From Gemmatimonadales bacterium (GTDB lineage: Bacteria; Gemmatimonadota; Gemmatimonadetes; Gemmatimonadales; GWC2-71-9): a stretch of DNA of 64,000 nucleotides. How positions within the stretch are numbered: position 1 is the first letter of the stretch; each line of letters opens with the position of its first letter. Of this stretch, positions 10,130 to 62,037 are shown one piece after another. Location of the stretch: the NCBI GenBank assembly GCA_025927545.1, contig JAICLE010000002.1, forward strand, positions 36,339 through 100,338, read 5' to 3'. Under the pieces are notes generated by a model. That model ran no database searches. It saw only the letters and a program-made list of their open reading frames with translations, and was not told the DNA's origin. The translations under genes and the position numbers were made by a program.

Positions 10130-10300
10130 ATGAAACCAGCCACCGACTACATCCGCCACACCGCGAAGCTCGCCCGCAAGCTGCAGATGGACGCGGCGAT
10201 GGGCGGGATGCCACAGCCCGACGCTGACTTCTACAAGGCATTATCCAAGGCGCTGGACGAGATCGCGGCGGGGCTCGAACAGTTGTCGAAAACCGAGTGA
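10130..10300 (+). CDS. small hypothetical protein (56 aa)
   Basis: MKPATDYIRHTAKLARKLQMDAAMGG... from ATG 10130. The stop overlaps the rnd GTG start. No family recognised. Confidence 0.4.
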   Translation: MKPATDYIRHTAKLARKLQMDAAMGGMPQPDADFYKALSKALDEIAAGLEQLSKTE

Positions 10301-11457
10301 GCCCCGGCGTAGCGTTGATCCAGTCGCAGGCGGAGCTGGAAGCGCTGTTCGCGCGACTCCGAGGCGCGCCCCTGCTCGCAGTGGATACGGAGGCGGCGAG
10401 CTTTCACCGATTCACCGACCGGGTCTACCTGCTGCAGATCAGCTCCCGCGAGGAGACGGCGGTCGTGGACCCGCTCGCGGTGGAGAACCTGGCCCCGCTG
10501 GGACAAGTGCTCGCGGATCCGGCGGTGGAGACGGTGTTCCACGACGCCGACTACGATCTGCGGCTGCTCGACCGGGAGTACGGCTACCATGCCTCGAGCC
10601 TGTTCGACACCCGCATCGCCGCACAGCTCCTCAACGAGCCTGGAGTAGGACTCGCAGCCTTGCTCGAGAAGTACCTCGGCGTCAGGCTCGACAAGCGTTT
10701 TCAGCGCGCCGACTGGTCCGCACGGCCGCTCTCGCCCGCGATGCTCGACTACGCGGCAGCGGACACCCGCTTCCTTCCCGAGCTGCGCGACATACTGCGG
10801 ACGCAGCTCGAGGCTCGCGGCCGGCTGGCCTGGGCGCAGGAAGAGTTCGCGCTGCTTCACGACCTGCACTGGAGCCCGGCCGACGGGGAGCCAGGCTATC
10901 TGCGGCTCAAGGGCGCGAAGGCGCTCAAGGCGCGCGAGCTGGCTATCCTGCGGGAGCTATATGCCTGGCGAGAGGGTGTGGCGCAGCGGAACGACCGGGC
11001 CACCTTCCGGATCCTCAACAACGAACCGATGCTCGCCATGGCCAAGACGCCCCCGAGCAACCTGGCCGCGCTCAAGGCAATTCCCGGGGTCGGCGGCGAA
11101 CAGGCCGAGCGGCGGGGCCGCGAGATCCTGGAGGCTGTCCGGCGCGGCCTCGCGCTTCCGGATGCGGAGCTGCCCCGAGTCGAGCGGGCACCGCGCCGAG
11201 TCTACGATCCCGCGCTGGAGGCGCGGCTCGACCGGCTCAAGACCGTCCGAAATCAGCTCGCCACCAAGCTCGAGCTCGCACCGGGCGTGCTGTGCCCGAA
11301 CGGGACCCTGGAGGCGATCGCCCGGCTGAATCCGAGGACGCTCGAGGAACTGGAGGCGGTGCCGGGGTTGAGGGCCTGGCAGCGGGGTGAGATCGGGGCG
11401 GACCTGCTGGCGGCGGTAGCGGAGACCGGAACCAAGGGAACCGGCGCGGGAACCTGA
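10297..11457 (+). CDS. rnd: ribonuclease D (DEDD 3'-5' exonuclease + HRDC)
   Basis: 386 aa. It shows LAVDTEA, FHDADYDLRLL and YAAADTRFL (Exo I-III motifs), followed by an HRDC-like region. Confidence 0.85.
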   Translation: MSPGVALIQSQAELEALFARLRGAPLLAVDTEAASFHRFTDRVYLLQISSREETAVVDPLAVENLAPLGQVLADPAVETVFHDADYDLRLLDREYGYHASSLFDTRIAAQLLNEPGVGLAALLEKYLGVRLDKRFQRADWSARPLSPAMLDYAAADTRFLPELRDILRTQLEARGRLAWAQEEFALLHDLHWSPADGEPGYLRLKGAKALKARELAILRELYAWREGVAQRNDRATFRILNNEPMLAMAKTPPSNLAALKAIPGVGGEQAERRGREILEAVRRGLALPDAELPRVERAPRRVYDPALEARLDRLKTVRNQLATKLELAPGVLCPNGTLEAIARLNPRTLEELEAVPGLRAWQRGEIGADLLAAVAETGTKGTGAGT

Positions 11458-11486
11458 CTTCCCTCCGGCGACTTACGACGAACCGC

Positions 11487-11813
11487 TCAGAACCCGAGAA
11501 ACGCGCGCACCCGAGGGTCCATCTTGTCCGGCGTCCAGTAGGGATCCCACACCAGCTCGACCTCAACTCCCTGGACGCCTTCCAGATCGGACACGACTGC
11601 CTTCACGTCGTCAGTGATCTCGGTGCCGGCCGGGCACCCCGGCGAGGTGAGTGTCATCCGGATGTGCACCTCGCCGGCGGCGCTCACCTCGATATCGTAG
11701 ACCAGGCCGATGTCGATGATATTGAGGTTGAGCTCCGGATCCTTCACGGTCCGGAGTGCCTTCCGGACCGTCTCAGGCGTGGGCGCTGCGGGACCTGCCG
11801 TCGCGTCAGTCAT
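11487..11813 (-). CDS. sufT: SufT/DUF59 (MIP18-family) Fe-S cluster assembly protein
   Basis: 108 aa. VKDPELNLNIIDIGLVYDI...MTLTSPGCPAG is the DUF59 signature. Confidence 0.85.
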   Translation of the reverse strand: MTDATAGPAAPTPETVRKALRTVKDPELNLNIIDIGLVYDIEVSAAGEVHIRMTLTSPGCPAGTEITDDVKAVVSDLEGVQGVEVELVWDPYWTPDKMDPRVRAFLGF

Positions 11814-11864
11814 GCCCGAAAGTTAACAGCGTGTCCCCTGGAGTGGAGCACGATCCAGCTCCCG

Positions 11865-13049
11865 CTAACAGCGGGAGACCAACTCCTGAGCGCAGCCGTG
11901 CGGCACCAACCGGATGGCGGCGTCAGACAGCGCCGCCCGCACGACCTTCAACTCCTTGAGCGAGTCGCGAGTCCTCGGGTCGAAGGCGCGATTGGTCAGA
12001 AACACGAGGTAGAGGTCGCGCGAGGGGTCGATCCAGAGCTCCGTCCCGGTGAAGCCGGTGTGACCGTACGCGGCGTCGCTGATCAGGGTCCCGAAGACGC
12101 TGGGCTCGTCGCCTTCCAGCTCGGGGGTGTCCCAGCCAAGGAGGCGTGAGCCGCTGTTGGGTCCCTTGACGAGAAACCGGCGGATGGTCGCCGGGCTCAC
12201 CCACTGCTCCCTGGGTCCGGCTCCGGCGCGGAGCCACACTGTCGCATACCGGGCCAGGTCCATGCCGGTCGAGAACACTCCGGCGTGCCCGGCCACCCCG
12301 CCCATCGCAACGGCGTTCTGGTCGTTGACCTGGCCGGGGACGGGATGCCCGCGCCAGATGCCGCTAGGCACGATCCGCGGCCGGAGCGAGGCGGGCGGCC
12401 TGTACATCGTGCTGCTCAGGCCAAGCGGAATGAAGACTTCGCGCCGCGCGAGCTGGTCAAGCGGCACGCCGGAGATCTTCTCGACCACGAGTCCCAGCAG
12501 GAGCGCGTTGAGGTCGCTGTATTCGGCGCTGTCGCCCGGCGCGCGGACCAGCGGCTGGGCGTACAGCAGATCGATCATGCGCGCCCGGCTTCGGTGTGCC
12601 CTGGTGTAAAACGGGACATAGCTCCGAAGACCGCTCGTATGATCGAGCAGCATGCGCACGGTCACCCGGTTCTTGGGGCCCCCGGAGAACCGGGGCAGAT
12701 AGCGGTGGACCGGCGCGTCGAGCTGCAGCTTGTTCCGATCCACGAGCCGCATCGCCGCGCTGGTCGTAGCCACGATCTTGGTGATCGAGGCGATGTCCCA
12801 CATTGTCGAATCCGGATCGGGGACGCGCGAGGCCGGGCTCCAGGTGTAGTGGCCATACCCGCGGGCATAGAGAACCGAGTCCCGCCGGCCGATGACCACC
12901 ACGGCCCCGGGATACAGGCCACGCTGGATGCCGTCCCGGACCGTCGCATCGACCTCGGCGAACGATTGGGCAACGGCGGCCGTGGCACCGAGCATCACGG
13001 CGAGCATTCCCCCGAGGACCCCGGCGGGCCTGGGGATCGTGATGACCAT
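11865..13049 (-). CDS. serine hydrolase, class C beta-lactamase/PBP4*-like family, secreted
   Basis: 394 aa from ATG 13049. It has a signal peptide (MVITIPRPAGVLGGMLAVMLGATAAVAQ) and the SxxK motif SITK. The 564-aa track ORF carries an Arg/Pro-rich spurious extension. Confidence 0.85.
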   Translation of the reverse strand: MVITIPRPAGVLGGMLAVMLGATAAVAQSFAEVDATVRDGIQRGLYPGAVVVIGRRDSVLYARGYGHYTWSPASRVPDPDSTMWDIASITKIVATTSAAMRLVDRNKLQLDAPVHRYLPRFSGGPKNRVTVRMLLDHTSGLRSYVPFYTRAHRSRARMIDLLYAQPLVRAPGDSAEYSDLNALLLGLVVEKISGVPLDQLARREVFIPLGLSSTMYRPPASLRPRIVPSGIWRGHPVPGQVNDQNAVAMGGVAGHAGVFSTGMDLARYATVWLRAGAGPREQWVSPATIRRFLVKGPNSGSRLLGWDTPELEGDEPSVFGTLISDAAYGHTGFTGTELWIDPSRDLYLVFLTNRAFDPRTRDSLKELKVVRAALSDAAIRLVPHGCAQELVSRC

Positions 13050-13165
13050 GCGCAGCTCCACCTTGCGGAATGCGGTCGCGCGGGAGCGGTCCGGGACCGG
13101 TGGGTTGGGCGAGCGGAACCTGGGGTGCGGACCGGCAACGATCGTGCCCACCACCACGGCACGGC

Positions 13166-13963
13166 CTAGCGGCCGCGGCCTGCCACCAGATCGCGTACGG
13201 GGCCGGGAGGCAGGCGGTAGAGCACCGCAGCGGTGCGCCGGTCGCGGTCGGAAAGGACCCCGGTGCGCGTGGCGGGGAACATCACGTCGTTGGAGTCCGC
13301 CGAGTGCGGCAGTCCGATCGCGTGCCCTGTCTCGTGCACCGCGACCGAGAGGAGGGCGTCGTCCGGCAGAATGACGCCGGTGTTGGTGCGAAGCGCGAGC
13401 GAAACCAGCGCCCGCCGCACCCGTCCCGACTGGTCCCAGGTGAGGTCGGTCTGCCCGGCGCGATCGAAGTCGAAGTGATCGATCCACCGCACCAGGATGT
13501 CGGCCTGACTGGTGTCCCGGACGAGGGCGAAACGCAGCCCGATGCCCAGACCTTCCCACCGATCGAGCGCGGTCCGCACATACCCGGCCATCCGCGGGTC
13601 GTAATCCGGCGGCCCCCCCTCCATGATTGCGACCCGGATGGGCAAGCCCCAGCGGTCGGGCCAGCGCCGCACCACGGAGTCGGTGCTCAGTATGAGCGAG
13701 TCGAGGTAGGTGGACCCCGCCTCGCGGGACAGCGCCTCGCGCGCAGCCAGCCGGGCCAGGCGAGTCGCGCCCGCCTCGCCAGCTCCGCCCGCCGGTGCTC
13801 GGGCGGCATCTGTCGGCCGCCGCCTGAGATCCGGTGTGGCGCTCCGAGTCTCGCTGGCCACCTGGTCGCTGCCCGATGGCCCGCGGTTGAGCGCACGGGA
13901 CACCCGATCGGCGAGTACCAGCACGAGCAGCCCGAGAGTGAGCAGAGGAAGGAAACGCCGCAT
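13166..13963 (-). CDS. matrixin-like zinc metalloprotease (peptidase M10 fold), secreted
   Basis: It has an N-terminal hydrophobic signal (MRRFLPLLTLGLLVLVLA), the motif HETGHAIGLPH (HExxHxxGxxH) and a following DVMFP Met-turn. Confidence 0.8.
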   Translation of the reverse strand: MRRFLPLLTLGLLVLVLADRVSRALNRGPSGSDQVASETRSATPDLRRRPTDAARAPAGGAGEAGATRLARLAAREALSREAGSTYLDSLILSTDSVVRRWPDRWGLPIRVAIMEGGPPDYDPRMAGYVRTALDRWEGLGIGLRFALVRDTSQADILVRWIDHFDFDRAGQTDLTWDQSGRVRRALVSLALRTNTGVILPDDALLSVAVHETGHAIGLPHSADSNDVMFPATRTGVLSDRDRRTAAVLYRLPPGPVRDLVAGRGR

Positions 13964-14093
13964 GACCTCAATATGGATGCGGCTCCGCTCCCGCCGCCAG
14001 CGGTGCCGCGTTCTGCTGGCGCAGCGCCCCCTGGTGGTCTAAGCTTTTGCCACCGCCGAGGCGGGCCGGACTCCGGGAGGGCTTCTGAACCTG

Positions 14094-16358
14094 ATGGACC
14101 GATATGCCCGGGCGCTGGTGCGCCGGCCCTGGGCAGTGCTCGTGGTGTGGGCGGTCATCGGCGCCGTGGCGGCCGTCCAGGCTCCCAAGACGCCGTCCCG
14201 GCTGAACATCCGGGGCGGAAGCACCCATCACACCGAGGCCTCGATCACGGAGGCGTTGCTGGCTGAGCGTTTCAGCCGGCCCATCGGCGAGTTCTTTGCG
14301 GTCACGATGCACTCTCCCGAGCGCCTCGACGAACCGGAGCCGAGGGCGGCGCTCGACAGCCTGCTCGCCGCCCTCGGGCGCCAGCCCTATGTTCGGGGAG
14401 TCATCTCCTACCGCAGCACCGGCGACACCACCTTCCTGAGCGGCGATCGCCGGGGCACCTTCGCCATCGTGGCGCTCGAGGCGACACCCGGCGACAGCGC
14501 GGGCGCGCTGGTGATGCCCGTCCGGCGCCTCGTGCGCGAGACGATGGGACGCGTCCCCGGCGGCGAGCGCTACCGTGTCCGGATTACGGGCCGGGCACCA
14601 CTCGACCTGGACGTCCGCACCGTGGTGACGCGCGACAGCGCGGAGGGCGAGGAGCGGCTGCTGCCGCTCACGCTGATCATCCTGGTCCTCGCGTTCGGTG
14701 CGCTGGTGGCGGCGGCGCTCCCCCTCATCGTGGGGGTGCTGGCGATCGCGGTGTCGCTTACCATCATCGGCGGCCTCGCGCGGTTCACGCCGATGTCGGT
14801 CTTCGTGCTCAACATGACCACCATGATCGGCCTGGGCGTCGGGATCGACTACTCCCTGCTGGTCGTCACCCGTTTCCGTGAGGAGCTGGCGCGTGGGACC
14901 CGGCGGCGTCAGGCCGCGGCCAATACGATGGCGACCGCGGGGCGGGCCGTGATCACGTCGGGGCTCACGGTATTCGTGGGCTTCGGCGCGCTGCTGCTCA
15001 CTCCCCTGATCGAAACGCGGAGCGTCGGCATCGGCGGCCTGGTGGTGGTGGCGGTCGCGGTGACCCTCTCGATCACGCTGCTCCCCGCCCTGTTGGCCGT
15101 GCTCGGCCGAGAGATCGACCGGCCCCGCTGGCTCGCGCGCCGGCTCACCTGGTACCATGCACCGCAGGTCTGGGAGAAGTGGGCCCGGACGCTGAGCCGG
15201 CACCCGGTTCGCGCGCTGGCCTATGGCGGCGTCATCATCGCGATCCTCACGCTCCCCGTCTTCTACATCAGGATCGGGCTGCCCTCGCGACACTGGTGGC
15301 CCGCCGGCACCGAGGCCGGTGAGGGGCTCGACGCGCTGTCCGCGATGGGCGTAGCCGGTTTCATCCAGCCGGTGCGCGTCCTGGTGCAGTTGCCGGAGGG
15401 CCGGAGCGCGACCGACGCGGCGGCGCTCCGTGGCCTCATGACGCTGGCAGATTCGCTCGGGGCCGACCCCCGGGTGCGCGAGATCCGGAGCCTAGTCAAC
15501 CTGGAGCCGCACGGCAGCCTGCTCGGCTACTCCGTGCTCTACAGCGACCTCCCTGCGGCCCGCGCCCGGTTCCCCGATTTCCTGGACGCCTACCTGAGCA
15601 CCGACCGGCGGCTCACGCTGATGGACGTCATCCTCGCCGACACCACGTCGCTCACGACCGCGACCGACGTGGTGCTGCACGCGCGCCAGCTCGCGCGGGC
15701 GCAGCTCCGCGGCACGAAGGGCATGACGATCACCGTCGGCGGCTATTCGGCGGCAGCGCTCGATTTCCAGGAGGATCTGCTGGCGCGCTTTCCGCTCCTG
15801 GTCGCGCTGATTCTCGGCGCTACCGGCGTGATGCTCGCGGTGGCGTTCAGATCGGTGCTCGTGCCGCTCAAGGCCATCGTCATGAACACGCTCTCGGTGA
15901 GCGCCACGTTCGGGCTGCTCGTGCTCGTCTTCCAGTACGGCGTGGGGGCGCGGCTCTTCGGGCTGGATGGACCGACGTCGGCGATTTTCGTCGCCGTGCC
16001 GGTCCTGGTGTTCGCCGTGGTGTTCGGGCTCAGCATGGACTACGAGGTCTTCCTGTTGAGCCGGATCAAGGAAGCGTTCGACCGGAGCGGGAGGAACACG
16101 GAGGCCACGATGGAGGGGTTGAGCGCCACAGCCTCGGTCATCACCTCGGCGGCACTCGTCATGATTCTGGTGTTCGGCATCTTCGCCTTCGCGCGCTCGC
16201 TACCCATGCAGCTCATGGGGTTCGGGCTCGCGGTGGCGGTGCTGCTGGACGCGACGGTGATCCGGAGGGTGCTGGTGCCGGCGTTCATGCAGGCGATGGG
16301 CCGGTGGAACTGGTGGCCGGGGGTGCGGCGGCGAAGGACGAAGGAGCCGGGGCTCTAG
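14094..16358 (+). CDS. MMPL-family (RND superfamily) membrane transporter
   Basis: 754 aa with two 6-TM blocks. Each block is followed by the typical GIDYSLLVVTRFREEL / SMDYEVFLLSRIKEAF motif of MMPL proteins. Confidence 0.85.
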   Translation: MDRYARALVRRPWAVLVVWAVIGAVAAVQAPKTPSRLNIRGGSTHHTEASITEALLAERFSRPIGEFFAVTMHSPERLDEPEPRAALDSLLAALGRQPYVRGVISYRSTGDTTFLSGDRRGTFAIVALEATPGDSAGALVMPVRRLVRETMGRVPGGERYRVRITGRAPLDLDVRTVVTRDSAEGEERLLPLTLIILVLAFGALVAAALPLIVGVLAIAVSLTIIGGLARFTPMSVFVLNMTTMIGLGVGIDYSLLVVTRFREELARGTRRRQAAANTMATAGRAVITSGLTVFVGFGALLLTPLIETRSVGIGGLVVVAVAVTLSITLLPALLAVLGREIDRPRWLARRLTWYHAPQVWEKWARTLSRHPVRALAYGGVIIAILTLPVFYIRIGLPSRHWWPAGTEAGEGLDALSAMGVAGFIQPVRVLVQLPEGRSATDAAALRGLMTLADSLGADPRVREIRSLVNLEPHGSLLGYSVLYSDLPAARARFPDFLDAYLSTDRRLTLMDVILADTTSLTTATDVVLHARQLARAQLRGTKGMTITVGGYSAAALDFQEDLLARFPLLVALILGATGVMLAVAFRSVLVPLKAIVMNTLSVSATFGLLVLVFQYGVGARLFGLDGPTSAIFVAVPVLVFAVVFGLSMDYEVFLLSRIKEAFDRSGRNTEATMEGLSATASVITSAALVMILVFGIFAFARSLPMQLMGFGLAVAVLLDATVIRRVLVPAFMQAMGRWNWWPGVRRRRTKEPGL

Positions 16359-16360
16359 GC

Positions 16361-16864
16361 TTACCGCGCCTGACCGCTGCCCACCGCGTGCGCCGCGAGC
16401 TCGTTCAGCCCGGTTGCGAACGTCACCGCCAGCCAGCCGATGATCCCGAGCAGCGCCAGCGCCAGGGCGATGCCGACCACGGCGAGGCGCTGCCCGTCAT
16501 CGCGCCGGGCGGTCGTCCGTACCTCCAGGGCGGCCGCCGGGCTCCGGAGCCGAGCGTACGCTTCGCGGCGGCGTTCCCGTTCATCCTCGTCATCAGGGAG
16601 ACTCCGCGCAAGCGACGTGAGCGACGGCAGCTCCGGGAGCGCGAGGCCGTCGAGCGATGGGGGCCGATAACGGAGCCGCGCCGCCCAGGCCGCCCGGATT
16701 TCGGGGTGCATTCCCACCGGCTGCGAGCTCTGCCGCACGGCGTCGAACACCGGGGTGGTGGGTGTGACCAGCCCGGCTTCGAGGGCGTCGAGGACGGCTT
16801 CGACGTCGGCGAACTCGAAGTCTCCGGCATCGGGGTCGCTGCAGACGAACCGTGCGCCGCTCAT
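16361..16864 (-). CDS. hypothetical protein with C-terminal transmembrane helix
   Basis: 167 aa. The ATG overlaps the polA stop (ATGA). It carries a C-terminal TM segment, LAVVGIALALALLGIIGWLAV. No family recognised. Confidence 0.6.
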   Translation of the reverse strand: MSGARFVCSDPDAGDFEFADVEAVLDALEAGLVTPTTPVFDAVRQSSQPVGMHPEIRAAWAARLRYRPPSLDGLALPELPSLTSLARSLPDDEDERERRREAYARLRSPAAALEVRTTARRDDGQRLAVVGIALALALLGIIGWLAVTFATGLNELAAHAVGSGQAR

Positions 16865-19788
16865 CGCTTGGCGTCCAGCCAGTCGGGCCCCACGCCGATC
16901 TCCACCACGAGCGGCACCCGGAGCTGCACTACCTGCTCCATGTGCGTGCGCACCAGCACTCGCAGCGCGTCCATCTCCTGGGGCGGCCCCTCGAAGACCA
17001 GCTCATCGTGCACCTGCAGCAGCATCCGGCTCTCGAGCTTCTGCTCGCGGAGCGCGGCATGGATCCGGATCATGGCGAGCTTGATGAGATCGGCGGCTGA
17101 GCCCTGGAGCGGCGAGTTCTGCGCGTTGCGCTCGCCGTAGGCCCGCATGTTGAAGTTGCGGTCACGGATCTCGGGGATATAGCGCCGGCGCTGGAACAGG
17201 GTCTCGACATAGCCCTGCTCACGCGCGAGACGCACCTGCGCGTCCAGGAAGGCGCGCACCCCCGCGAAGCGCTCGAAGTAGCGGGCGATGAACGTCCTGG
17301 CGTCCTCCTGCGAGATGCCGAGCTGCCGGCTGAGCGCGAACGGCCCCTGCCCGTAGATGGTCGCGAAGTTGATCGTCTTCGCGCGCGCGCGCATGTCGGG
17401 CGTGACCTGCTCGAGAGGGACCGCGAAGATCAAGGCGGCGGTCTGCCGGTGAATGTCGCCACCCTGGTGGAATGCTTCGATGAAGGCCGGATCGCCCGAG
17501 AGGTGGGCCATGAGCCGCAGCTCGATCTGCGAGTAGTCGGCGACGAGGAAGCTCCAGCCGGCGCGGGGCACGAAGCCCCGGCGGATCGCCTCGCCGCGTG
17601 GCGTGCGCACCGGGATGTTCTGCAGGTTGGGCTCCGAGGAGCTGAGCCGCCCGGTGGCCGCACCGGTCTGGTTGAAGCTGGTGTGGATGCGTCCCGTGTG
17701 GCGGTTCACGCGCTCCGGCAGCGTATCCACGTAGGTGCTCTTGAGCTTCTGCAGCTCGCGGTATTCGAGAATCAGGCGCGGCAGTTCGTGGCCCATTGCC
17801 GCAAGTTGTTCGAGGACGTCGGCGTCGGTGCTGGGCCCGGTCTTGGTGCGCTTCAGGATCGGGAGCTGCTGCTTCTCGAACAGAATGGCCGCGAGCTGGC
17901 GGGGCGAGTTCAGATTGAGCGCCTCGCCGGCGACGGTGGCGATCTCGGCCTCGAGCCGGGCCAGCTCGACGCCGAGCTCCGCGCTCAGGCGGGCGAACAC
18001 CTCGGGATCGATCGAGATCCCGTCCCATTCCATGTCGGTCAGTACCGGGATGAGCGGCATCTCGATGTCGCGGAGCAGCGGCTCCATCGCCATCTCCCGC
18101 AGCGCGGGCGCGAGCCGCTCGCGGAGCGCCAGCACGGTGCCGCTGTCGGCGCCGCAGTACGCCGCCGCTGCCGCGATGGGCACCTCGGCGAACGGGATCT
18201 CCGCCTTCCCCTTCCCCGCCACGTCGGCGTACGTCTGCATGCCGCGTCCCAGGTGCTCGAGGCAGAGCGTGTCGATGGCGTGCGACCGGCGGCCGGGATC
18301 GAGGACGAAGCTGGCGAGCATCGAGTCATACGCCACGCCGGCGAGCTCTACCCCGGCGCGGCGGAGCACCTGCCAGTCGTACTTGATGTTGTGGCCGGCT
18401 TTCGGAGCCGCCGGGTCCTCGAGCAGCGCGAACAGCGGCGCGCAGGCAAAGTCGGTGATCGGCGGGAGATTCCTGACCGGCTCGGGTGCGGCGAGCTCAC
18501 CCGCCGGCGGGCGATGGCCGAACGGCAGGTACCAGACCTCGCCCGGGCTCGCCGCCAGCGAAAGACCGACCAATTCTGCATCGTGCGGCTCGAGCGAGCT
18601 GGTCTCGGTGTCGAGCGCCATGATCGGCGCGGCGCGCAGGCGCTCGACCAGCGCGGGAAGCTCGTCGGGGTCGTCAACGATCGTGACCTCGGGCGCCGGA
18701 CCTTCGTCGAGGGCGAGCCAGTCGGCGGCCGTGGCCGGGAGGGTGGCGCTGGCCGCGGCTACGAGTGCGCCCCCGTCGTCCGGAACGGCACCTTGGGACC
18801 ACGAGTCGGGCACCACCGAGGCCACCCGGCCGGTTTCCAGGCCTGCGTCGGCCTCCGCGGCTGCATCCCCAACCGCGGCCGGCCCCCCCTGCCCGCCCAA
18901 CCGCCTCGCCAGCGAAAAGAACTCCAGCTCCGTCAGCAACCGGATCAGTGACTCGCGGTCGGGCTCCTGGAGCACGAGATCGCCGACATCGAGCTCAACC
19001 GGCACATCGCGCTTGATCGTGACGAGCTCCTGGGAAAGCCGCGCCGCATCGGCCTGCGCGAGGAGCGCCTCCCGGCTGCGCTTGGCCGTGACTTCGCCGG
19101 CGCGGGACAGAATCGTCTCCAGGTCGCCGTACTCGGCGAGCAACTTCTGGGCGCCCTTCTCGCCGATGCCCTTTACGCCGGGCACGTTGTCCGAGCTGTC
19201 GCCCACGAGCGCGAGAAAGTCCACCACCTGGTGCGGCGGGACGCCCAGCCGTTCGGCGGCGTTCGCCTCGTTGACCCATATCTCGTCGACGGCAGCCGGC
19301 CCACCGCGGCCCGGGTTCAGGAGAGTGATCCCGGGGCCGATGAGCTGGTAGAAGTCCTTGTCGCCCGAGACGATCACGGCCTGGAGCCCTCGCCCGGCGG
19401 CGGCGTGGGCCAGGGTTCCGATCACGTCGTCGGCCTCGTATCCCCTGACGGCGACGAGCGGGATCCGAAAGGCCTCGAGCAGCGTGCAGATCCGCTCGAC
19501 CGCGGTGTCGAAATCGGCCTGCAGCGACTCGTCGAGCTTCGCGCGGGTGGACTTGTACTCGGGGTAGCGCTCCTGCCGGAAGGAGGTGCCGGCGTCGTTG
19601 ACCCAGCACACGTAGTCGGGCCGGTACTTCTCACGCAGGCGGACCAGGAAGTTCACGACGCCCCAAGCCGCGGAGGTGTTCTCTCCACGGGCGGTGCGGA
19701 GCGGCCGCGAGATCATCGCGTAGAAGGCGCGATAGATCAGGGCGTAGCCGTCGATGAGGAAGAGCTGGGGGGGCGTGTGGTTGGGCAT
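16861..19788 (-). CDS. polA: DNA polymerase I
   Basis: 975 aa. It has an N-terminal 5' nuclease domain (LFLIDGYALIYRAFYA), a 3'-5' exonuclease-like domain, and polymerase motifs DYSQIELRLMAHLSGD and QVHDELVFE. Confidence 0.97.
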   Translation of the reverse strand: MPNHTPPQLFLIDGYALIYRAFYAMISRPLRTARGENTSAAWGVVNFLVRLREKYRPDYVCWVNDAGTSFRQERYPEYKSTRAKLDESLQADFDTAVERICTLLEAFRIPLVAVRGYEADDVIGTLAHAAAGRGLQAVIVSGDKDFYQLIGPGITLLNPGRGGPAAVDEIWVNEANAAERLGVPPHQVVDFLALVGDSSDNVPGVKGIGEKGAQKLLAEYGDLETILSRAGEVTAKRSREALLAQADAARLSQELVTIKRDVPVELDVGDLVLQEPDRESLIRLLTELEFFSLARRLGGQGGPAAVGDAAAEADAGLETGRVASVVPDSWSQGAVPDDGGALVAAASATLPATAADWLALDEGPAPEVTIVDDPDELPALVERLRAAPIMALDTETSSLEPHDAELVGLSLAASPGEVWYLPFGHRPPAGELAAPEPVRNLPPITDFACAPLFALLEDPAAPKAGHNIKYDWQVLRRAGVELAGVAYDSMLASFVLDPGRRSHAIDTLCLEHLGRGMQTYADVAGKGKAEIPFAEVPIAAAAAYCGADSGTVLALRERLAPALREMAMEPLLRDIEMPLIPVLTDMEWDGISIDPEVFARLSAELGVELARLEAEIATVAGEALNLNSPRQLAAILFEKQQLPILKRTKTGPSTDADVLEQLAAMGHELPRLILEYRELQKLKSTYVDTLPERVNRHTGRIHTSFNQTGAATGRLSSSEPNLQNIPVRTPRGEAIRRGFVPRAGWSFLVADYSQIELRLMAHLSGDPAFIEAFHQGGDIHRQTAALIFAVPLEQVTPDMRARAKTINFATIYGQGPFALSRQLGISQEDARTFIARYFERFAGVRAFLDAQVRLAREQGYVETLFQRRRYIPEIRDRNFNMRAYGERNAQNSPLQGSAADLIKLAMIRIHAALREQKLESRMLLQVHDELVFEGPPQEMDALRVLVRTHMEQVVQLRVPLVVEIGVGPDWLDAKR

Positions 19789-19805
19789 CGGTTGGAAGAT
19801 AAGGT

Positions 19806-19889
19806 GGGAAGGCGGAAGGACGGAAAGACGGAAGGGCCGCCGCTACGTCTTTCAGTATTTCCGTCCTTCCGCCTTTCCGCCCTTCCGCC
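19806..19889. repeat. octamer-array inverted repeat element, copy 1
   Basis: GGGAAGGC GGAAGGAC GGAAAGAC GGAAGGGC, then 20 nt, then TTTCCGTC CTTCCGCC TTTCCGCC CTTCCGCC. 19811-19835 can pair with 19865-19889 (23/25). It contains the 15-mer CGGAAGGACGGAAAG, which is also found at 56268 and 61951. Confidence 0.9.
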
Positions 19890-19892
19890 TCT

Positions 19893-21236
19893 CTAGCCCT
19901 CCTGTCTTCGAACCCGTGACAGGGTCCGCTCGAAGTCCGCGCGGCTGTTGGGCACCAGCCTGAGACGGCCGAAGCCGCTCTCGTCGCGGAAGAAGAGGTC
20001 GAGCCGATAGGTGATGTACGACCAGCGGACCACGCGGTCGGCGGTGGTGCCGGGGCTGTTTTCGACGGCCTCGTCGGGGGGACCGAGGGTGATGAACACT
20101 TCGCCGCGGTCGGTGCGCCAGCCGGGCACGCCCTCGTCGGTGAATCGCTGATTGGCCTGCGCGATCCGGCCGAAATACTGGTTGAGCGCCTCGTTCTCGG
20201 GCGTGACGGGGTTGGGATCGGTGGCCGCGTAGAACTCTCGCCACAGCCGGGCACGCTCGGACGCGGGCGCCTTCCGCATCGCGCTCACCTGGCTGTCGTG
20301 CCCGAAGTACCGCAGCAGATCGAGCATCTCGTCGAAGTTGGTCACGACCCACGCCTGGGTGAACGAGACCAGCGCCGACACACTGCGCTCGCTACTCCCC
20401 TGCCCGACCACCAGCTTCAGCTCGCCGAGGGACACGCTGTCGGGCGAGAGCCGGATGACCTGGCTCTCGACCTGCCGGTCGCCGCGGAAGCGGAGCTCGT
20501 CCTGGTAGATGACGTGCTGTCGCTCGTCCATCACCTTGAACGGCACGGTTGTCGGGTGCGCGAAGCCGTAACCCTCCATATACGCGAGCAGCGTGTCGCT
20601 TCCGTAGCCCACCGACCCGCGCGGGTTGAGCACGATGTTGAGCGGATCCGACCGGCTTCCCCGCCCCGTCGCCTGGTACGCCAGAATCGGCGCGCTCACG
20701 CTTCCGGGCCCGAAGCTCGGCGCCGTGTAGTCGGCCTCTGCCCGGCTCTCGGAGGTCGAGCCCACGTCCCGCACGGTGACGCTCACGTGGTAGGTGCCCG
20801 GGAGGAGCCGCAGGACCTGCTGGAACAGGATGCTCTCGTCGCTTCGCAGGGTTTCCTTGAACGTGGGCACGCGCACGACTTCCTCACGCGCCACGTCCAG
20901 CGAGGGCGCACCCTCGCGCCGGAACGACAGGCTCACCCGATACCGCGCGACGAAGACGTTGCCTTCGCGCTGGAATGCGAGTGCCCGGTTCTCGAGCGAG
21001 AGTCCCAGGATGCCGACGACCGAGTCGGCCGGCCCGGCGGCGAATGCCACCGTGCCGACGAACGGGAGCGGCTCGGCGGCAGCCAGACGCCCGAGCCGTT
21101 GGTAGTATTGTGTGCTGTTCAGGACGTGGGTCAGCGATTCAGTCGGCGTGGGCTGGTCACCGCTGCCGACGCGGCTCCAACTGCCACAGCCAAGGGCCGC
21201 AGCACCCAGTGCCGCCGAAAGCACAAGCCGACGCAT
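19893..21236 (-). CDS. GWxTD domain-containing lipoprotein
   Basis: 447 aa. It has a signal/lipobox (LGAAALGCGS) and a C-terminal DEGVPGWRTDRGEVFITLGPPDE, the GWxTD motif. Confidence 0.8.
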   Translation of the reverse strand: MRRLVLSAALGAAALGCGSWSRVGSGDQPTPTESLTHVLNSTQYYQRLGRLAAAEPLPFVGTVAFAAGPADSVVGILGLSLENRALAFQREGNVFVARYRVSLSFRREGAPSLDVAREEVVRVPTFKETLRSDESILFQQVLRLLPGTYHVSVTVRDVGSTSESRAEADYTAPSFGPGSVSAPILAYQATGRGSRSDPLNIVLNPRGSVGYGSDTLLAYMEGYGFAHPTTVPFKVMDERQHVIYQDELRFRGDRQVESQVIRLSPDSVSLGELKLVVGQGSSERSVSALVSFTQAWVVTNFDEMLDLLRYFGHDSQVSAMRKAPASERARLWREFYAATDPNPVTPENEALNQYFGRIAQANQRFTDEGVPGWRTDRGEVFITLGPPDEAVENSPGTTADRVVRWSYITYRLDLFFRDESGFGRLRLVPNSRADFERTLSRVRRQEG

Positions 21237-24416: not shown

Positions 24417-24890
24417 ATGAGGACAGGAATTCGATGGAGCGGAGCGGCCAGCATCATGGTCGGCATGGCCGTGGCGGCGTGCAATCGCGCGCCGGGGCAG
24501 GGGTCCACCGCGGCCAGTCAGGATGCGAGCGCCACGCGGGTGCGCCCGGCCTTCTCGCACGAGCTGCCCCGGCTGAACGGAGAGCACCTCTCCGCGAAGC
24601 TGGTCGAGGTCAGCTATGGGCCGGGCGGATCGTCGCCGCCGCACAGCCACCCGTGTCCGGTGATCGGCTATGTGCTCGACGGTGCCATCCGGTCGCAGGT
24701 TCGCGGCCAGCCGGAATCCACGTACCGGGCCGGCGAGAGCTTCTACGAGGCGCCTAACGGGGTGCACCAGGTCTCCGCCAACGCCAGCCGGACTGCACCG
24801 GCGCGGCTGCTGGCGTATTTCGTCTGCGATCGGGACGCGCCGCTCACCACGCCGGCGGACACTGGCGCTGAAGGCAGCCGCCGGCCGTGA
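24417..24890 (+). CDS. cupin-domain lipoprotein
   Basis: 157 aa. It has a signal with lipobox (GMAVAAC) and the cupin motif GSSPPHSHPCPVIGYVLDG...GESFYEAPNGVH. Confidence 0.7.
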   Translation: MRTGIRWSGAASIMVGMAVAACNRAPGQGSTAASQDASATRVRPAFSHELPRLNGEHLSAKLVEVSYGPGGSSPPHSHPCPVIGYVLDGAIRSQVRGQPESTYRAGESFYEAPNGVHQVSANASRTAPARLLAYFVCDRDAPLTTPADTGAEGSRRP

Positions 24891-26977: not shown

Positions 26978-27045
26978 CGGCGTCGTGCACCGGTCGTATC
27001 TTCGACCGTGCGCGGCATTGCCTACATCACCAACCAGAGAGTGTC

Positions 27046-27459
27046 ATGTCCCAACCCGAAGAGCGGCTCCGTCCGCACCCAAGCGAGCGCCTGTCCGGAC
27101 CGGCGGTGTTGCTCAACCTGCCGGAATTCACGCAGGCACTGTACGCCGAACCGCATCCATCCAAGCAGGGCCACCGCCAGGTCAGCCTGGTCCACCGGGG
27201 GCCGCTCCGCCTGGTGCTGTTCGCCCTCGAGGCGGGTGGCGAGCTGCCGGAGCACCGGGCACCCGGCCACGTGGTGATACACTGCCTGCGCGGACAGATC
27301 GAGGTGGAGGCGGCGGGCGCGCGCGAGCGGATGGGAGCCAACGAGGCGCTGGTGCTCGACCCAGACGTGCCGCACACCGTGAAGGCGCTCATCCAGAGCG
27401 AGATGCTGCTCACCGTCTGTCTCGACGCGAAGCCGCAGCGTCCCCCGGAGACGCGCTGA
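27046..27459 (+). CDS. cupin-domain protein
   Basis: 137 aa from ATG 27046. LPEHRAPGHVVIHCLRGQIEV...GANEALVLDPDVPHTV is a two-motif cupin signature. Confidence 0.7.
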   Translation: MSQPEERLRPHPSERLSGPAVLLNLPEFTQALYAEPHPSKQGHRQVSLVHRGPLRLVLFALEAGGELPEHRAPGHVVIHCLRGQIEVEAAGARERMGANEALVLDPDVPHTVKALIQSEMLLTVCLDAKPQRPPETR

Positions 27460-27482
27460 GCCGCCGGCTGCTCGAGCCCGCC

Positions 27483-27908: not shown

Positions 27909-28862
27909 CTACGTGATCGGCTCCAGTCCCGCCAGGATCGATTCACGGCGCGGCTCGAGGAACGGGGGGAGCGCGACCGAGTCGCCGAGCCGCGCGGGAT
28001 CCTCGTCCACCGCGAACCCCGGCCCATCGGTGGCGATCTCGAACAGCACCCCGGCCGGCTCCCGGAAATAGAGGCTCCGGAAGTAATACCGGTCCACTTC
28101 GCCGCTGTTGGGGACCCCGTGTGACTCGAGTCGCTCGCGCCACTGGTGGTATTCCGCCTCGTTGGGCGTCCGGAAGGCAACGTGGTGCACGCCGCCCGCG
28201 CCGAGCCGGGCAGGGGCGAGGTCCGGCTGCACGGCTACGTGGAGCTCCGCGTGGGGGCCGCCGGCCCCCATCCCGTAGACGTGCACCGCATGCTCGGCGT
28301 ACTCGGGGTGCGCGTACTGGCGGATCGGGTGCAGGCCCATGACCCGCGTCAGCACCGCGTCGGTTCCGCGGAGGGCCGTCACGCTCAGCACGATGGGCCC
28401 TAGGCCGCGCACCTGGTGCTCGGCGGGCACGGGGCTCCGGTCCCACGGCGTGGGCGCGTCCCCCAGGCCGCCGTCGTCGAGCAGCGACAGACGCTGCCCC
28501 TCGGGATCCTCGAAGTCCAGCGTGAGGCGGCCGTCGCGCTCGGCCACCGAAGCGCCCGGCACCTTCAGCTCCGTGAAGCGCCGCGCCCACCAGTCGAGGC
28601 TCGCGGCACCACTCACGCGGAGGTGCGTGCGGACGATGCTGTGGCTTCCCCGACGTTCGCGCGGCATCTTCCAATCGAAGAACGTCAGGTCGGTACCCGG
28701 CGTCCCTACCGCGTCCGCATAGAACAGGTGATACGCGCTGACGTCGTCCTGGTTCACGCTGCGCTTCACCAGGCGCATGCCCAGGGTGCCGGTGTAGAAG
28801 CGGTAGTTCTCGCGGATGGTAGCGGAGACCGCCGTGAGGTGATGGATGCCGGTGAGTTGCAT
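27909..28862 (-). CDS. ring-cleaving dioxygenase, VOC/glyoxalase superfamily (two-domain)
   Basis: 317 aa from ATG 28862, with GAGGAGGA upstream. It shows [10 protein letters not shown]...[23 protein letters not shown] and [24 protein letters not shown]. It is a paralogue of 35151-36104. Confidence 0.82.
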
Positions 28863-28986: not shown

Positions 28987-29430
28987 CTAGACCCGGAGAA
29001 ACGCCGCGCACGCCGGGTCGCTTCGCAGCGCCGCGAGCGCAGCGGCGTCCGGCCGCTCGGGCACGTCACGCTCGCAATCCACCATGCACAGAAAGCCGAG
29101 CGGGGCGCTGTCCGTCGCGCGGAACTGGTGCCAGGTGAGCGCCGGAACACGGACGAGATCGTTGATCACAGCATCGAATACCCGACTTCCCACCAGCACC
29201 CGTCCGCCACCGCGCACGATCATTACCGCGTGCGCGTGGTGGTGCCGCTCGAGCGATGACCACCCTCCCGGCGCGATCTCGAAGTACCGGAGCTGGCACG
29301 CGAGCCCGTCGCCGCCCTCGAAGAGCACCTGCCGGGTGACGCCCGCGAAGTGACTACCGACCGCCTTGTAGGGCCGGACCTCGATTCCGTCCCATCGGAA
29401 CGGCTCGGTCTGACGCACGTGGTCGCTCAT
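28987..29430 (-). CDS. cupin-domain protein, translationally coupled to the RuBisCO-like protein
   Basis: 147 aa from ATG 29430, with an ATGA overlap onto the RLP stop. It shows [28 protein letters not shown]...[11 protein letters not shown]. Confidence 0.75.
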
Positions 29431-30554
29431 GCTGTCCTCCCGGCGGACGCGAGCCGGGCCACCTGCTCGACCAGGCTCCGGGTCCGCTCGAAGAGTGCAT
29501 TGCCTGCCTGATAGAGGCTCCCGCCGACCAGCAGGATGCAGTCGGGTCCGTAGAAGTCCAGCAGCTCGACGATGCGCTCCACCCTGATGCCGCCCGCCGG
29601 TACCGGGAAGGCGGGCCGAGCGCGCGGATGCCCGGCCCGGAGCGCGGCCGCGAGCGCCCGGCAGGTGTCGGCGCCGTAGCTGAACCGCCCGCCGGAGTGG
29701 GGGAAGATCACCGCGTCCGCGCCGTACCACCGGAAGAGCTTCCCGAACAGCACGGGCTCGGCGGCGCGGAGCACGCCGCCCAGCGCCGGGTGAGCGATGA
29801 TCGGGAGCCCAGCCGATTCCGATGCGAGCTGATGGAGCAGCGGCAGACCGACGAGCATCGGCGAGATCAGCACCGCCCGCGCGCCCGCGCGGCGCGCGAA
29901 CTCGAGCTGCCGCCCGATCCGCTCCGGCGTCCCGATGAGGTTCGGGACGTAGAGCGCCCGGCGGCCGGTCTCGCGGGCCGCATGCTCGACCGCACGGAGG
30001 CACGCCTCCACCCGCGCCTCGAAGGGGCAGAACGGGTGGTCGGCCAGCCCGTGATCGTCTTTGATGACGTCCACCCCCGCACGTGCGAACGTGGCGCAGA
30101 GCTCCGCCAGCCCAGCGGGATCGAGCCCCATGGGCTTGAGTGCCGTCGCGAGGAGTGGCCCGCCCGGCACGCCAGCCAGCGCGCGAAGCCCCCCGATGCC
30201 GGCGCGCGGCCCCGGCAACCAGTCGAACGCCGCATCGGGGAGCTCGACGTCCTCGAGCAGCAGATCCGGCTGCAGCGACGAATTGCCGAACAGCACGTTG
30301 AGCAGTTGCGCGGGGTCGGCGGCCGCGGTGGCGACCGGGTGGGCGATGGTGACACGGTGGATGCCCTCGCTCACCGCGGCGATCGTCTCGACGCAGCCGA
30401 GAATGTGCTCGGCCACCCAGTGGTTGCGCACCGCCGCGCGCGGGAGCTCGACCGCCTGCTCCAGCAGCAGCGCCTCCGACCGCGCGCGGACGTCGGCCGC
30501 CGCCACGCGGATGAGGTAGGTGACGCGGATCGAGGCGGCGCTCATCTGGTGCAC
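29427..30554 (-). CDS. RuBisCO large-subunit-like protein (form IV, RLP)
   Basis: It shows ALKPMGLD (the KPK region, with M in place of the second K), AGVDVIKDDHGLADHPF (the KDDE region, here KDDH), IAHPALGG, FPHSGGRF, VPAGGI and LLVGGSL. Together these align to the RuBisCO large-subunit catalytic barrel. The start is GTG 30554 (GGAGG 9 nt upstream) or ATG 30545. Confidence 0.85.
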   Translation of the reverse strand: MHQMSAASIRVTYLIRVAAADVRARSEALLLEQAVELPRAAVRNHWVAEHILGCVETIAAVSEGIHRVTIAHPVATAAADPAQLLNVLFGNSSLQPDLLLEDVELPDAAFDWLPGPRAGIGGLRALAGVPGGPLLATALKPMGLDPAGLAELCATFARAGVDVIKDDHGLADHPFCPFEARVEACLRAVEHAARETGRRALYVPNLIGTPERIGRQLEFARRAGARAVLISPMLVGLPLLHQLASESAGLPIIAHPALGGVLRAAEPVLFGKLFRWYGADAVIFPHSGGRFSYGADTCRALAAALRAGHPRARPAFPVPAGGIRVERIVELLDFYGPDCILLVGGSLYQAGNALFERTRSLVEQVARLASAGRTA

Positions 30555-30628
30555 CGGCACACTCCTCCCCATAGTGGGAACGCGAGTTCCGTTGAACAAT
30601 ATCGCCCACTCGGGCGCGGAGACGACCC

Positions 30629-35150: not shown

Positions 35151-36104
35151 GTGACACACCCCATTCGCGGCCTGCACCACGTGACCGCCACCGTCGCCGA
35201 GGCGCAGCACGACCTCGACTTCTGCGAGCGGGTCCTCGGCCTCAGGCTAGTCAAGCGCACCGTCAACTTCGACAACCACAGCGTGTATCACTTTTACTAC
35301 GGGACCGCAGCGGGCGAACCCGGAACGCTGTGGACCACTTTCCCGTACCATGGCTGGGGCGTGCCGTCCGGCGTTCACGGTGCCGGCCAGGTGGTCGCGA
35401 CCGCATTCTCGGTGTCTCCTGGCGCGCTCGATGCCTGGCGCGAGCGCTTTGACGCGGCAGGAGTCGCGGTGGAAGAGGGAGCGCCGCGTTTCGGTGAGCG
35501 CCCCCTCGTGGTTCGCGACCCATCGGGGCTCAGGCTCGAGCTGGTGGCCGACGCGCGAGATACGCGGGCGCCGTGGATCGGTGGCGAGGTCGGCAGGGGC
35601 GTGGCCATCCGCGGACTGCACGCCGTCACCCTGATGCTCCGCTCGCGAGCTCCGACGGCCGAGCTCATGACGGGGCTGCTTGGCTTCGAAGTGGTCCACG
35701 AGGAGCCCGGGCGCACGCGGTTGGCAGTCGGCGGCGACTTGCCCGGGCATCTGGTGGACCTGGTCGACGCCCCGGAGGCGCAGCCGGCGCGGAACGGACT
35801 CGGAACGGTGCATCACGTGGCGTTCGCGGTCGACGGAGCCGACGAGCAGCTCCTGCTCCGGAAGGAGCTGCTCCGCGCCGGCCGCCAGGTCACCGAGGTG
35901 CGCGACCGCACGTACTTCCAGTCGGTTTACTTCCGCGAGCCCGGCGGGGTGCTGTTCGAGCTGGCCACGATGCTGCCGGGCTTCACCGTGGACGAGTCAC
36001 CCGCCGAGCTGGGACAGGCGCTCATGCTTCCGCCCTGGGAAGAGGAGCATCGGGCGACGATCGAGGCCACGCTGCCGCCGATGACGACCCACCGTGGCCA
36101 CTAG
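35151..36104 (+). CDS. ring-cleaving dioxygenase, VOC/glyoxalase superfamily (two-domain)
   Basis: 317 aa. It shows GLHHVTATVA...GLRLVKRTVNFDN, GTVHHVAFAV and YFQSVYFREPGGVLFELATMLPGF. It has the same length and motifs as 27909-28862. Confidence 0.82.
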   Translation: MTHPIRGLHHVTATVAEAQHDLDFCERVLGLRLVKRTVNFDNHSVYHFYYGTAAGEPGTLWTTFPYHGWGVPSGVHGAGQVVATAFSVSPGALDAWRERFDAAGVAVEEGAPRFGERPLVVRDPSGLRLELVADARDTRAPWIGGEVGRGVAIRGLHAVTLMLRSRAPTAELMTGLLGFEVVHEEPGRTRLAVGGDLPGHLVDLVDAPEAQPARNGLGTVHHVAFAVDGADEQLLLRKELLRAGRQVTEVRDRTYFQSVYFREPGGVLFELATMLPGFTVDESPAELGQALMLPPWEEEHRATIEATLPPMTTHRGH

Positions 36105-38804: not shown

Positions 38805-39758
38805 CTAGGGGACGAGGGCGAGCTGCAGGTTCACCAGCGAGCAGCCGATGGCCGTGTTGCAGGCGACAACCTTCACGCCGCTCCCGGTCAGGTCGCTGAT
38901 GAGGTCGCCATTGACCACGCCGCCCGCGTAGCTGAGCGCCGGCTGACCGAAGAAGATCGTCCAGGTGCCCGCCGGCGTCGAGCCGTCGGTGCCGACCAGA
39001 ATCCCCGCGCCCGACGTGGTGTTGGCGTTCCCGTCATAAGAGAGCTGGGCGACGGGCGCGCCTGCCGAGTAGAAGTTCATCACCCGGTTGCCCGACCCGT
39101 CCGTAGCCGTGAACAGTTGCGCCTGGGGCGTGAAGGTCAGCGCGAGCGAGGTGGTCGTCGGCCCGACCTGGAGGCATTTGGAGTGAAACGGGTGCGTCTC
39201 CTGGCCGCCCGGATTGATCCACAGCCCCGGCTGCCCCGTGGCCGACGTGACACACTGACCGTTGCCGCCGTTCCCCGTCCCATCCGAACCGTACGACAAA
39301 CAGTTCGGGTTGTGCGGGCCGAAGACGCCGCCATCGGGATCGGTCCACCAGCCATTCGCGCTGCAGGTGCCGACGCCATAGAGGCCGGCGCCCGACGTCT
39401 GGAACACCAGTGCCGTGCTGCTCCCGGAGGTGGCCGCGGTACCGGTCCCGGCAGGATCGTACACGCCCGGATCGACGCTCTGAATTACCGGCGTGCTGTC
39501 GCCCGGCGTGGTCCAGGTGCCGTTGACGATGGGATCGCCGGCGGCCGCCGTATCGACGGGGGTGGTAGATGTCGTATCGCCCGGGTTGGTGGACGTCGTG
39601 TCGCCGCCACCGGAGATGCCGCCCGTGCCGCCGCCGCGGGGGCCGTTGACGGGGACGTCACGGGTGCCGGTACCGGAAGGCGAGGTCGGGCCGCCGTCCG
39701 AGCAGGCGGCGAGGGTCAGAGTCGCGAGCAACACGGTCGCGAGGCGGAAGCGGGACAT
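38805..39758 (-). CDS. hypothetical lipoprotein, Gly/Thr-rich
   Basis: 317 aa. It has a signal/lipobox (LLATLTLAACSDGG). No family recognised. Confidence 0.65.
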   Translation of the reverse strand: MSRFRLATVLLATLTLAACSDGGPTSPSGTGTRDVPVNGPRGGGTGGISGGGDTTSTNPGDTTSTTPVDTAAAGDPIVNGTWTTPGDSTPVIQSVDPGVYDPAGTGTAATSGSSTALVFQTSGAGLYGVGTCSANGWWTDPDGGVFGPHNPNCLSYGSDGTGNGGNGQCVTSATGQPGLWINPGGQETHPFHSKCLQVGPTTTSLALTFTPQAQLFTATDGSGNRVMNFYSAGAPVAQLSYDGNANTTSGAGILVGTDGSTPAGTWTIFFGQPALSYAGGVVNGDLISDLTGSGVKVVACNTAIGCSLVNLQLALVP

Positions 39759-40058
39759 GGGACGACTCCTTCGACGGCACGAGGGTGAGCCGGCCGGCTG
39801 CCGGCGTCAGCCCCTTCGACGGCCAGGCTGTCTCTGAGAGACCCTTGGCTTTGCGGACCGGCCTCGCGGCCGGGGTGCCCTGGTCGAAGGGAATTGGTAC
39901 AGTGATCCTTCGACCCGCAGATCGGCAATCCCGGTGCCAGATCGGCAACTGATGCTGGACCAACGTGATGCCCCGCGACAACCGGGCTGCGCTGGGTGGT
40001 CGCTACCGCGCTCTGCAACGGCAGGTCTCCACGCGGGCGCACCGATACGAGGTTCATC

Positions 40059-56723: not shown

Positions 56724-56724
56724 C

Positions 56725-62028: not shown

Positions 62029-62037
62029 CGGAGCAGC

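Follow-up and report, generated by a model that had tools for sequence, protein, structure and literature searches.

A RuBisCO-like protein gene overlapping a cupin gene in a Gemmatimonadales genome: a predicted pair of methylthioadenosine-isoprenoid shunt enzymes

In a stretch of 64,000 nucleotides from the genome of a Gemmatimonadales bacterium (assembly GCA_025927545.1, contig JAICLE010000002.1, positions 36,339 to 100,338 of the forward strand), referred to below as the window, the gene of a RuBisCO-like protein (RLP) is followed, with a short overlap, by the gene of a small cupin. This arrangement raises the question of which reactions the two proteins catalyze and whether these reactions are consecutive steps of one pathway. 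[quoted passage not shown] Results of our analysis speak for this suggestion, as the cupin is closely related to the methylsulfurylase of Rhodospirillum rubrum (Rru_A2000), the RLP groups with the RLP of PDB entry 3qfw, and the coupled pairing of both genes recurs in most of the related loci that we compared. Very probably, the pair represents the two enzymes of the shunt, the isomerase and the methylsulfurylase; our confidence in its physiological role is somewhat lower than in the enzyme functions.

The overlapping RLP and cupin genes

The features that define the two genes are the following.

29427-30554, minus strand: RLP gene, form IV, predicted 5-methylthio-D-ribulose-1-phosphate (MTRu-1-P) 1,3-isomerase, 375 aa from GTG 30554
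28987-29430, minus strand: cupin gene, single Cupin_2 domain, 147 aa, translated open reading frame (ORF)
29427-29430, minus strand: ATGA shared by the stop codon of the RLP gene (TGA) and the start codon of the cupin gene (ATG), read from the sequence
29436-29440, minus strand: GGAGG, 5 nt upstream of the cupin ATG, read from the sequence
30564-30568, minus strand: Shine-Dalgarno-like GGAGG, 9 nt upstream of the RLP GTG, read from the sequence

Both ORFs and the shared ATGA were found where the preliminary description had placed them. The RLP frame is free of internal stops and comprises 375 residues and a stop codon, with VHQMSAAS as the N-terminus of the translation. Two other start codons are possible, namely ATG 30545 (372 aa) and ATG 30572 (381 aa), the latter being used by the public call P0001, and in public gene calls the identical protein and the members of its cluster are 372, 375, or 381 aa long. 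The GTG at 30554 is the most plausible start, because GGAGG precedes it by 9 nt and because the length of 375 aa matches that of many homologues. The G + C content at third codon positions (GC3) is 0.86 in the RLP frame. The RLP matches the Pfam family RuBisCO_large (PF00016) with 74.7 bits (cut-off, 30.1; E 1e-20), and the cupin matches Cupin_2 (PF07883) with an E-value of 6.5e-10, above the gathering cut-off. Since, in addition to the GC3 value and these Pfam matches, the two proteins have matches in the PDB with E-values down to 8e-93 (RLP) and 3.7e-43 (cupin), we consider both to be products of real genes. As judged from the sequence, the ATGA overlap is predicted to couple the translation of the cupin to that of the RLP. 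The identical RLP and cupin are present in public records of a farmland soil metagenome and of an NCBI metagenome-assembled genome (MAG), and their close relatives are labelled Gemmatimonadales bacterium. The RLP of one relative, DATAHW01, is 94% identical to that of the window.

Relatives, conserved residues, and pairing of the two proteins

When one genome per GTDB species was scanned with motif seeds, at least 569 stretches with relatives were found, of which the best 80 loci were analyzed together with two metagenome loci (82 loci in total). At least eight phyla are represented among the best 80, which belong to Gemmatimonadales, Myxococcota, Verrucomicrobia (Opitutaceae and Methylacidiphilaceae), Alpha-, Beta-, and Gammaproteobacteria, Chloroflexi, and Actinomycetota.

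In a search of the PDB, the RLP aligned with 3qfw without gaps over residues 6-364 of 372 (314.7 bits, E 8e-93, 46% identity), and the two proteins (378 aa in 3qfw) align collinearly from end to end. We take 3qfw to be RLP1 of Rhodopseudomonas palustris, of the DeepYkr clade, both the organism and the clade name being our assumption. It is referred to as an RLP structure in the literature (PMC13454268). The matches to the YkrW/MtnW enolases and their relatives (2oek, 2oej, 4nas, 2zvi, and 3fk4) scored 111-139 bits, with 139 bits for 2oek, those to the Photo-type RLPs (1tel, 1ykw, and 2qyg) 83-89 bits, with 89 bits for 1tel, and that to another RLP, 3nwr, 56 bits. In a neighbor-joining tree of the 80 locus-derived homologues, the window RLP, 3qfw, and YkrW as the single outgroup, the window RLP is located inside a Gemmatimonadales clade, 3qfw is nested in the same large clade, and YkrW is on a long branch. 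No NCBIfam model was passed by the RLP, and the scores of the MtnW and OiaX models, given below, are far under their cut-offs. The grouping with 3qfw and away from YkrW, the Photo-type RLPs, and 3nwr supports the assignment of the protein as a form IV RLP of DeepYkr type and predicted MTRu-1-P 1,3-isomerase.

The motifs LKPMG, VIKDDHGL, AHPALGG, PHSGGRF, PAGGI, and VGGSL, by which the preliminary description aligned the protein to RuBisCO, are all present in the translation. The two departures from the carboxylase active site that it pointed out, KPK to KPM and KDDE to KDDH, are real, although they are features of the clade, and KPM and KPQ alternate within it. Column counts show that the Lys and both Asp of the KDD motif are invariant in 82 of the 82 clade sequences, and that His occupies the position of RuBisCO E204 in all 82 as well, and in 3qfw. 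The position of RuBisCO K177 is Met in 47 of the 82 and Gln in 26 (3qfw among them), with Val, Ile, or Leu in the remainder. The His in place of Glu, which had been called unusual, is so relative to RuBisCO and not within the clade, where KDDH is the norm. One of the two motifs used for retrieval was K[DE]DHGLAD, and the possible circularity of this result was checked with the sequences matched by the second motif. KDDH is present in all 35 of them, seven of which do not match K[DE]DHGLAD, so that its status as a clade signature is not an artifact of retrieval. The equivalents of RuBisCO K175, K201, and D203 are conserved in the RLP, as are an Asn at the position of N123 and the phosphate-site motifs PAGGI and GGS. 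The protein carries in this way the signature of its clade: KP[M/Q], KDDH, FGN, and conserved phosphate-binding motifs.

Among PDB entries, the cupin matches best 3jzv, which bears the deposited name 'uncharacterized protein Rru_A2000' (E 3.7e-43 over residues 10-145; 53% identity over the full length), followed by 3kgz (E 6e-42, 53% identity) and 3ibm. The two latter structures are from R. palustris and Halorhodospira halophila, respectively (PMC3293032). Rru_A2000 is the methylsulfurylase of R. rubrum that acts on MTXu-5-P (1-methylthio-D-xylulose-5-phosphate); in vivo, it uses glutathione to form DXP (1-deoxy-D-xylulose-5-phosphate) and a glutathione-methylthiol adduct, the latter being MTA-induced in the wild type and not in the Rru_A2000 mutant (PMC4334135). 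The strong similarity to the R. rubrum cupin, on which the preliminary description made its suggestion depend, extends to individual residues: all positions that at least 95% of the 79 cupin family members have in common are kept in the window cupin. They include E61-R62-H63-x-H65-x-H67, W100-H101-Q102, C115, and R121-D122, of which the ERHxHxH and WHQ motifs form a putative metal site, as far as ligand roles can be assigned by motif positions in cupins. These similarities support the prediction that the cupin, an ortholog of Rru_A2000, is an MTXu-5-P methylsulfurylase, which would release the methylthio group in a thiol-dependent reaction giving DXP.

The tight pairing of the two genes is nearly universal across phyla. 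In 75 of the 82 loci, the gene directly downstream of the RLP gene, with which it shares the strand, encodes a cupin homologue (46-100% identity); 48 of these 75 pairs share a 4-nt ATGA or GTGA overlap, and in 20 more the gap is 0-30 nt. One of the seven remaining loci is cut at the RLP gene, three have only 0.6-2.5 kb of downstream sequence, and three lack the cupin gene. In these last three, L022 and L031 of Verrucomicrobia and L047 of Thermoleophilia (positions about 10000-21000), an RLP of DeepYkr type is encoded with no cupin homologue within 10 kb downstream; the gene of its partner may be located at another site, or the RLP may act without one. When 5041 flank ORFs were clustered all against all, no neighbor other than the RLP and the cupin was common across phyla. 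A cluster of short-chain dehydrogenases/reductases, present in 15 loci, was rejected as a conserved neighbor, its positions being variable and its members generic.

One of the loci, L056 (CAMATU010000006.1), is titled 'MAG: Klebsiella pneumoniae'. Its pair of a DeepYkr RLP and a cupin, 50% identical to the window protein, groups with sequences of proteobacterial MAGs, and the taxonomic label or the binning of this record looks doubtful.

The closest described counterparts are the pairs of R. rubrum and R. palustris. The DeepYkr RLPs of these bacteria catalyze the 1,3-isomerization of MTRu-1-P with kcat of 1.2 and 1.3 s-1, respectively (PMC5893883). In R. palustris, the cupin gene (RPA2170) has rlp1 (RPA2169) as its neighbor, and the functions of both have been verified in vivo and in vitro; deletion of either gene decreases methanethiol production 4- to 5-fold, and deletion of the cupin gene leads to the accumulation of MTXu-5-P (PMC5893883). 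The R. palustris pair resembles that of the window in the order of the RLP and cupin genes and in its cupin (3kgz), which is 53% identical. The R. rubrum pair (RLP Rru_A1998 and cupin Rru_A2000) is similar in the 53% identity of the cupin with the invariant residues kept, in an RLP of the same clade being encoded nearby, and in the predicted chemistry. However, the R. rubrum locus tags are not consecutive, while the window genes overlap by 4 nt, and the window comes from a different kind of host, a non-phototrophic soil Gemmatimonadales MAG. The RLP of 3qfw shares 46% identity and KDDH with the window RLP but differs from it at position 139 (Gln instead of Met) and at position 283 (Asn instead of His). 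Photo-type RLPs of Chlorobaculum tepidum (1ykw/1tel) and R. palustris (RLP2, 2qyg) share with the window RLP the form IV assignment and a link to sulfur metabolism, but they reach only the 83-89 bits mentioned above; no activity of R. palustris RLP2 on MTRu-1-P was detectable (PMC5893883).

Proposed reactions and competing explanations

In the proposed pathway, MTA would be converted to MTRu-1-P by enzymes encoded elsewhere in the genome. The RLP, by orthology, would then use its RuBisCO barrel, the Lys of KDDH (the equivalent of the carbamylated Lys of RuBisCO), and a divalent metal to convert MTRu-1-P to MTXu-5-P and some of the ribulose epimer. The cupin, likewise by orthology, would act as a metal-dependent methylsulfurylase, with a thiol stripping the methylthio group from MTXu-5-P to leave DXP. 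DXP would enter the methylerythritol phosphate (MEP) pathway of isoprenoid synthesis, and the methylthio-thiol adduct would yield methanethiol, to be re-assimilated into methionine or released. The substrates and the thiol cofactor in Gemmatimonadales we infer by analogy with the characterized enzymes.

Several observations weigh against this assignment. The identity to the characterized enzymes is 46-53% and no higher, and the functions in the Gemmatimonadales branch are predicted ones. Within the RLP, position 139 (that of RuBisCO K177) is Met and position 283 is His, instead of the Gln and Asn of 3qfw. Glutathione is the thiol of R. rubrum, and the cofactor of these bacteria would be assigned by extension from it. 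A search of Rfam found no riboswitch of the S-adenosylmethionine (SAM) or any other type in the vicinity of the window pair; for 17 diverse related loci, the search was negative over their whole length. Finally, the supply of the substrate is not encoded nearby. As stated in the preliminary description, mtnA, mtnP, and mtnK are not in the 64-kb window, and the annotation of the window revealed none of them, nor dxs. With Bacillus subtilis MtnA and human MTAP as tblastn probes (validated by scores above the cut-offs, 477 bits for TIGR00512 and 315 bits for TIGR01694, respectively), neither the window nor any of the 82 loci with 10-kb flanks on each side gave a match to mtnA or mtnP at E<1e-4.

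The absence of mtnA and mtnP near the pair is consistent with the situation in R. rubrum and R. palustris, where both genes are at loci separate from the pair: Rru_A0361/0360 for mtnP/mtnA and RPA4821/4820, respectively (PMC4334135, PMC5893883). Possibly, MtnP/MtnA or MtnN/MtnK/MtnA encoded elsewhere in the genome supply MTRu-1-P in the Gemmatimonadales bacterium. A hint as to the upstream steps in Gemmatimonadota comes from the available part of a SEED table of 49 genomes, in which 'methylthioribose kinase' is annotated in 48 of 49 and MTA phosphorylase in about 11 of 49, such annotations being at times unreliable.

The same observations bear on an explanation that we consider unlikely, in which the chemistry of the pair is the same and its substrate or cofactor is another one. 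The RLP would then, for instance, isomerize 5-deoxy-D-ribulose-1-phosphate, derived from the radical-SAM by-product 5'-deoxyadenosine, directly to DXP, or the cupin would use a thiol other than glutathione, and the pair would serve mainly as a bypass of Dxs or in the salvage of 5'-deoxynucleosides, not of sulfur. The lack of mtnP and mtnA linked to the pair in the 82 loci, the variability of positions 139 (M/Q) and 283 (H/N) across the clade, and the scarcity of MTA phosphorylase relative to 'methylthioribose kinase' in the part of the SEED table just cited are in agreement with such a role, and a few genomes without Dxs carry both shunt enzymes (PMC10663253). Yet a deoxy substrate would leave the cupin without a task, and it is kept and coupled in nearly all loci, with every residue shared by at least 95% of the methylsulfurylase family retained. 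A related idea, which we would call a long shot, is that in soil Gemmatimonadales, and in the many other non-phototrophic lineages with the coupled genes, the pair is fed not by MtnP/MtnA but by 5-methylthioribose-1-phosphate derived from MtnK, or acts on 5-deoxyribulose-1-phosphate from 5'-deoxyadenosine. If the latter were true, DXP would be made by the RLP on its own, and the pair would constitute a general Dxs bypass leading from 5'-deoxynucleosides to isoprenoids and also a widespread source of methanethiol in soil.

It is highly improbable that the RLP is a 2,3-diketo-5-methylthiopentyl-1-phosphate enolase of the YkrW/MtnW type acting in canonical methionine salvage. The best NCBIfam E-values of the protein are those of the MtnW models NF007095 (2.4e-50) and TIGR03332 (3.7e-37), and it shares with the Bacillus and Geobacillus enzymes (2oek, 2zvi) the fold, a role in methionine salvage, the Lys of KDD, AHPA, and PxxGI. 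However, the scores of these matches, 171 and 128 bits, fall far short of the equivalog cut-offs (409 and 513.6, respectively), and the identity to Geobacillus YkrW is 35% as compared to 46% to 3qfw. KDDE of the enolases is replaced by KDDH, and the position of the FGK Lys of YkrW (2oek) is Asn across the whole clade, as it is in RuBisCO. This Lys is reportedly the general base of the enolase, and its replacement throughout the clade disfavors enolase chemistry. The reaction of YkrW/MtnW differs from that predicted for the window RLP, and none of its gene partners, mtnX, mtnB, and mtnD, was found near the RLP gene. We regard this explanation as effectively refuted.

Also effectively refuted, by scores and gene context, is the scarcely credible assignment of the RLP to the sugar-acid/apiose type (OiaX-like decarboxylase/transcarboxylase or tetronate-phosphate isomerase) or to CO2-fixing RuBisCO, which draws on a weak match to the OiaX model NF042437 (E 4e-22) and on matches to form III models, but against which stand 78.5 bits versus a cut-off of 700 for OiaX, 97 bits versus 497 for form III (97-100 bits versus 438-497 for the carboxylating forms I-III), the replacement of the K177 and E204 equivalents (KPM and KDDH), a conserved partner that is a cupin of the methylsulfurylase type, and the absence of genes for a RuBisCO small subunit, phosphoribulokinase (prk), cbb functions, kinases, or sugar-acid metabolism among the approximately 45 window ORFs annotated with Pfam. 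The view of the preliminary description that the protein is an RLP rather than a CO2-fixing enzyme, and that small subunit, prk, and cbb genes are missing nearby, is in this way borne out within these ORFs.

Surroundings of the pair and implications

Other features of the window are listed below.

27909-28862, minus strand: two-domain vicinal oxygen chelate (VOC) protein, 317 aa, MhqO/PcpA-like hydroquinone ring-cleaving dioxygenase (two Glyoxalase domains, PDB matches)
39815-39889, minus strand: c-di-GMP-I riboswitch RF01051, 47.8 bits versus a gathering score of 35
56352-56724, plus strand: bacterial RNase P class A RNA RF00010, 268 bits
59109-60440, minus strand: dnaN
60444-61901, minus strand: dnaA
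62064-62603, plus strand: rnpA
62845 onwards, plus strand: yidC

A divergently transcribed phosphoesterase gene is located directly upstream of the RLP gene, and the VOC gene is on the same strand as the pair, 124 nt downstream of the cupin gene. The VOC protein matches 1zsw (E 1e-70), 3oaj (MhqO), and 4huz (PcpA) in the PDB. Its gene is near the pair in 13 loci, all of them of Gemmatimonadales, and in no other phylum, and in L002 two genes of the opposite strand stand between the VOC gene and the pair. A functional link between the VOC gene and the pair was rejected, given the hydroquinone dioxygenase family of its product and the lack of synteny outside the order, and the gene is probably not part of the system. 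A second MhqO/PcpA-like VOC paralogue of 317 aa is encoded at 35151-36104 on the plus strand, so that two paralogues flank the pair, and this double arrangement recurs in the Gemmatimonadales loci L001-L005, L007, and L034. Less than 5 kb from the pair, there are also stand-alone Cupin_2 genes (24417-24890 on the plus strand and about 26985-27460), which adjoin genes of a CMD-family protein and of a pyridoxal phosphate (PLP)-dependent decarboxylase and whose products show no sequence relationship to the methylsulfurylase-type cupin.

The remaining genes of the window include suf genes, polA, gdh, and genes of a PLP decarboxylase, a beta-lactamase-family protein, and a DEAD-box helicase, as well as a resistance-nodulation-division (RND) efflux operon. 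The presence of dnaN, dnaA, rnpA, and yidC at 59109-63999 indicates that the window includes the chromosomal replication-origin region, at about 30 kb from the pair. The c-di-GMP-I riboswitch is located directly upstream of a 333-aa ORF (38808-39806, minus strand) with no Pfam match. The RNase P RNA overlaps the start of the ORF 56599-57561, a call based on GC3 only and with no Pfam match, which may be partly spurious. A simple scan for promoters and terminators gave nothing meaningful.

The pathway, both of its enzymes, and the pairing of their genes have already been described, and the assignment of the window pair implies no new biology. KEGG-based screens already include both shunt enzymes (PMC10663253), and JGI names some close homologues of the RLP (75-78% identity) 'S-methyl-5-thioribulose 1-phosphate isomerase'. 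In NCBI records, close homologues of the two proteins are named 'RuBisCO large subunit C-terminal-like domain-containing protein' and 'cupin domain-containing protein', and in a recent survey of Gemmatimonadota, the 'type IV rbcL' of 72 MAGs received no assignment. Our analysis replaces the two generic names in public records by the assignment to one pathway, which is specific and can be tested, in a lineage that is common in soil. The presence of relatives in at least 569 species-level genomes, the best 80 of which span at least eight phyla with the cupin gene nearly always coupled downstream, suggests that the MTA-isoprenoid shunt and the methanethiol it yields extend well beyond purple bacteria.

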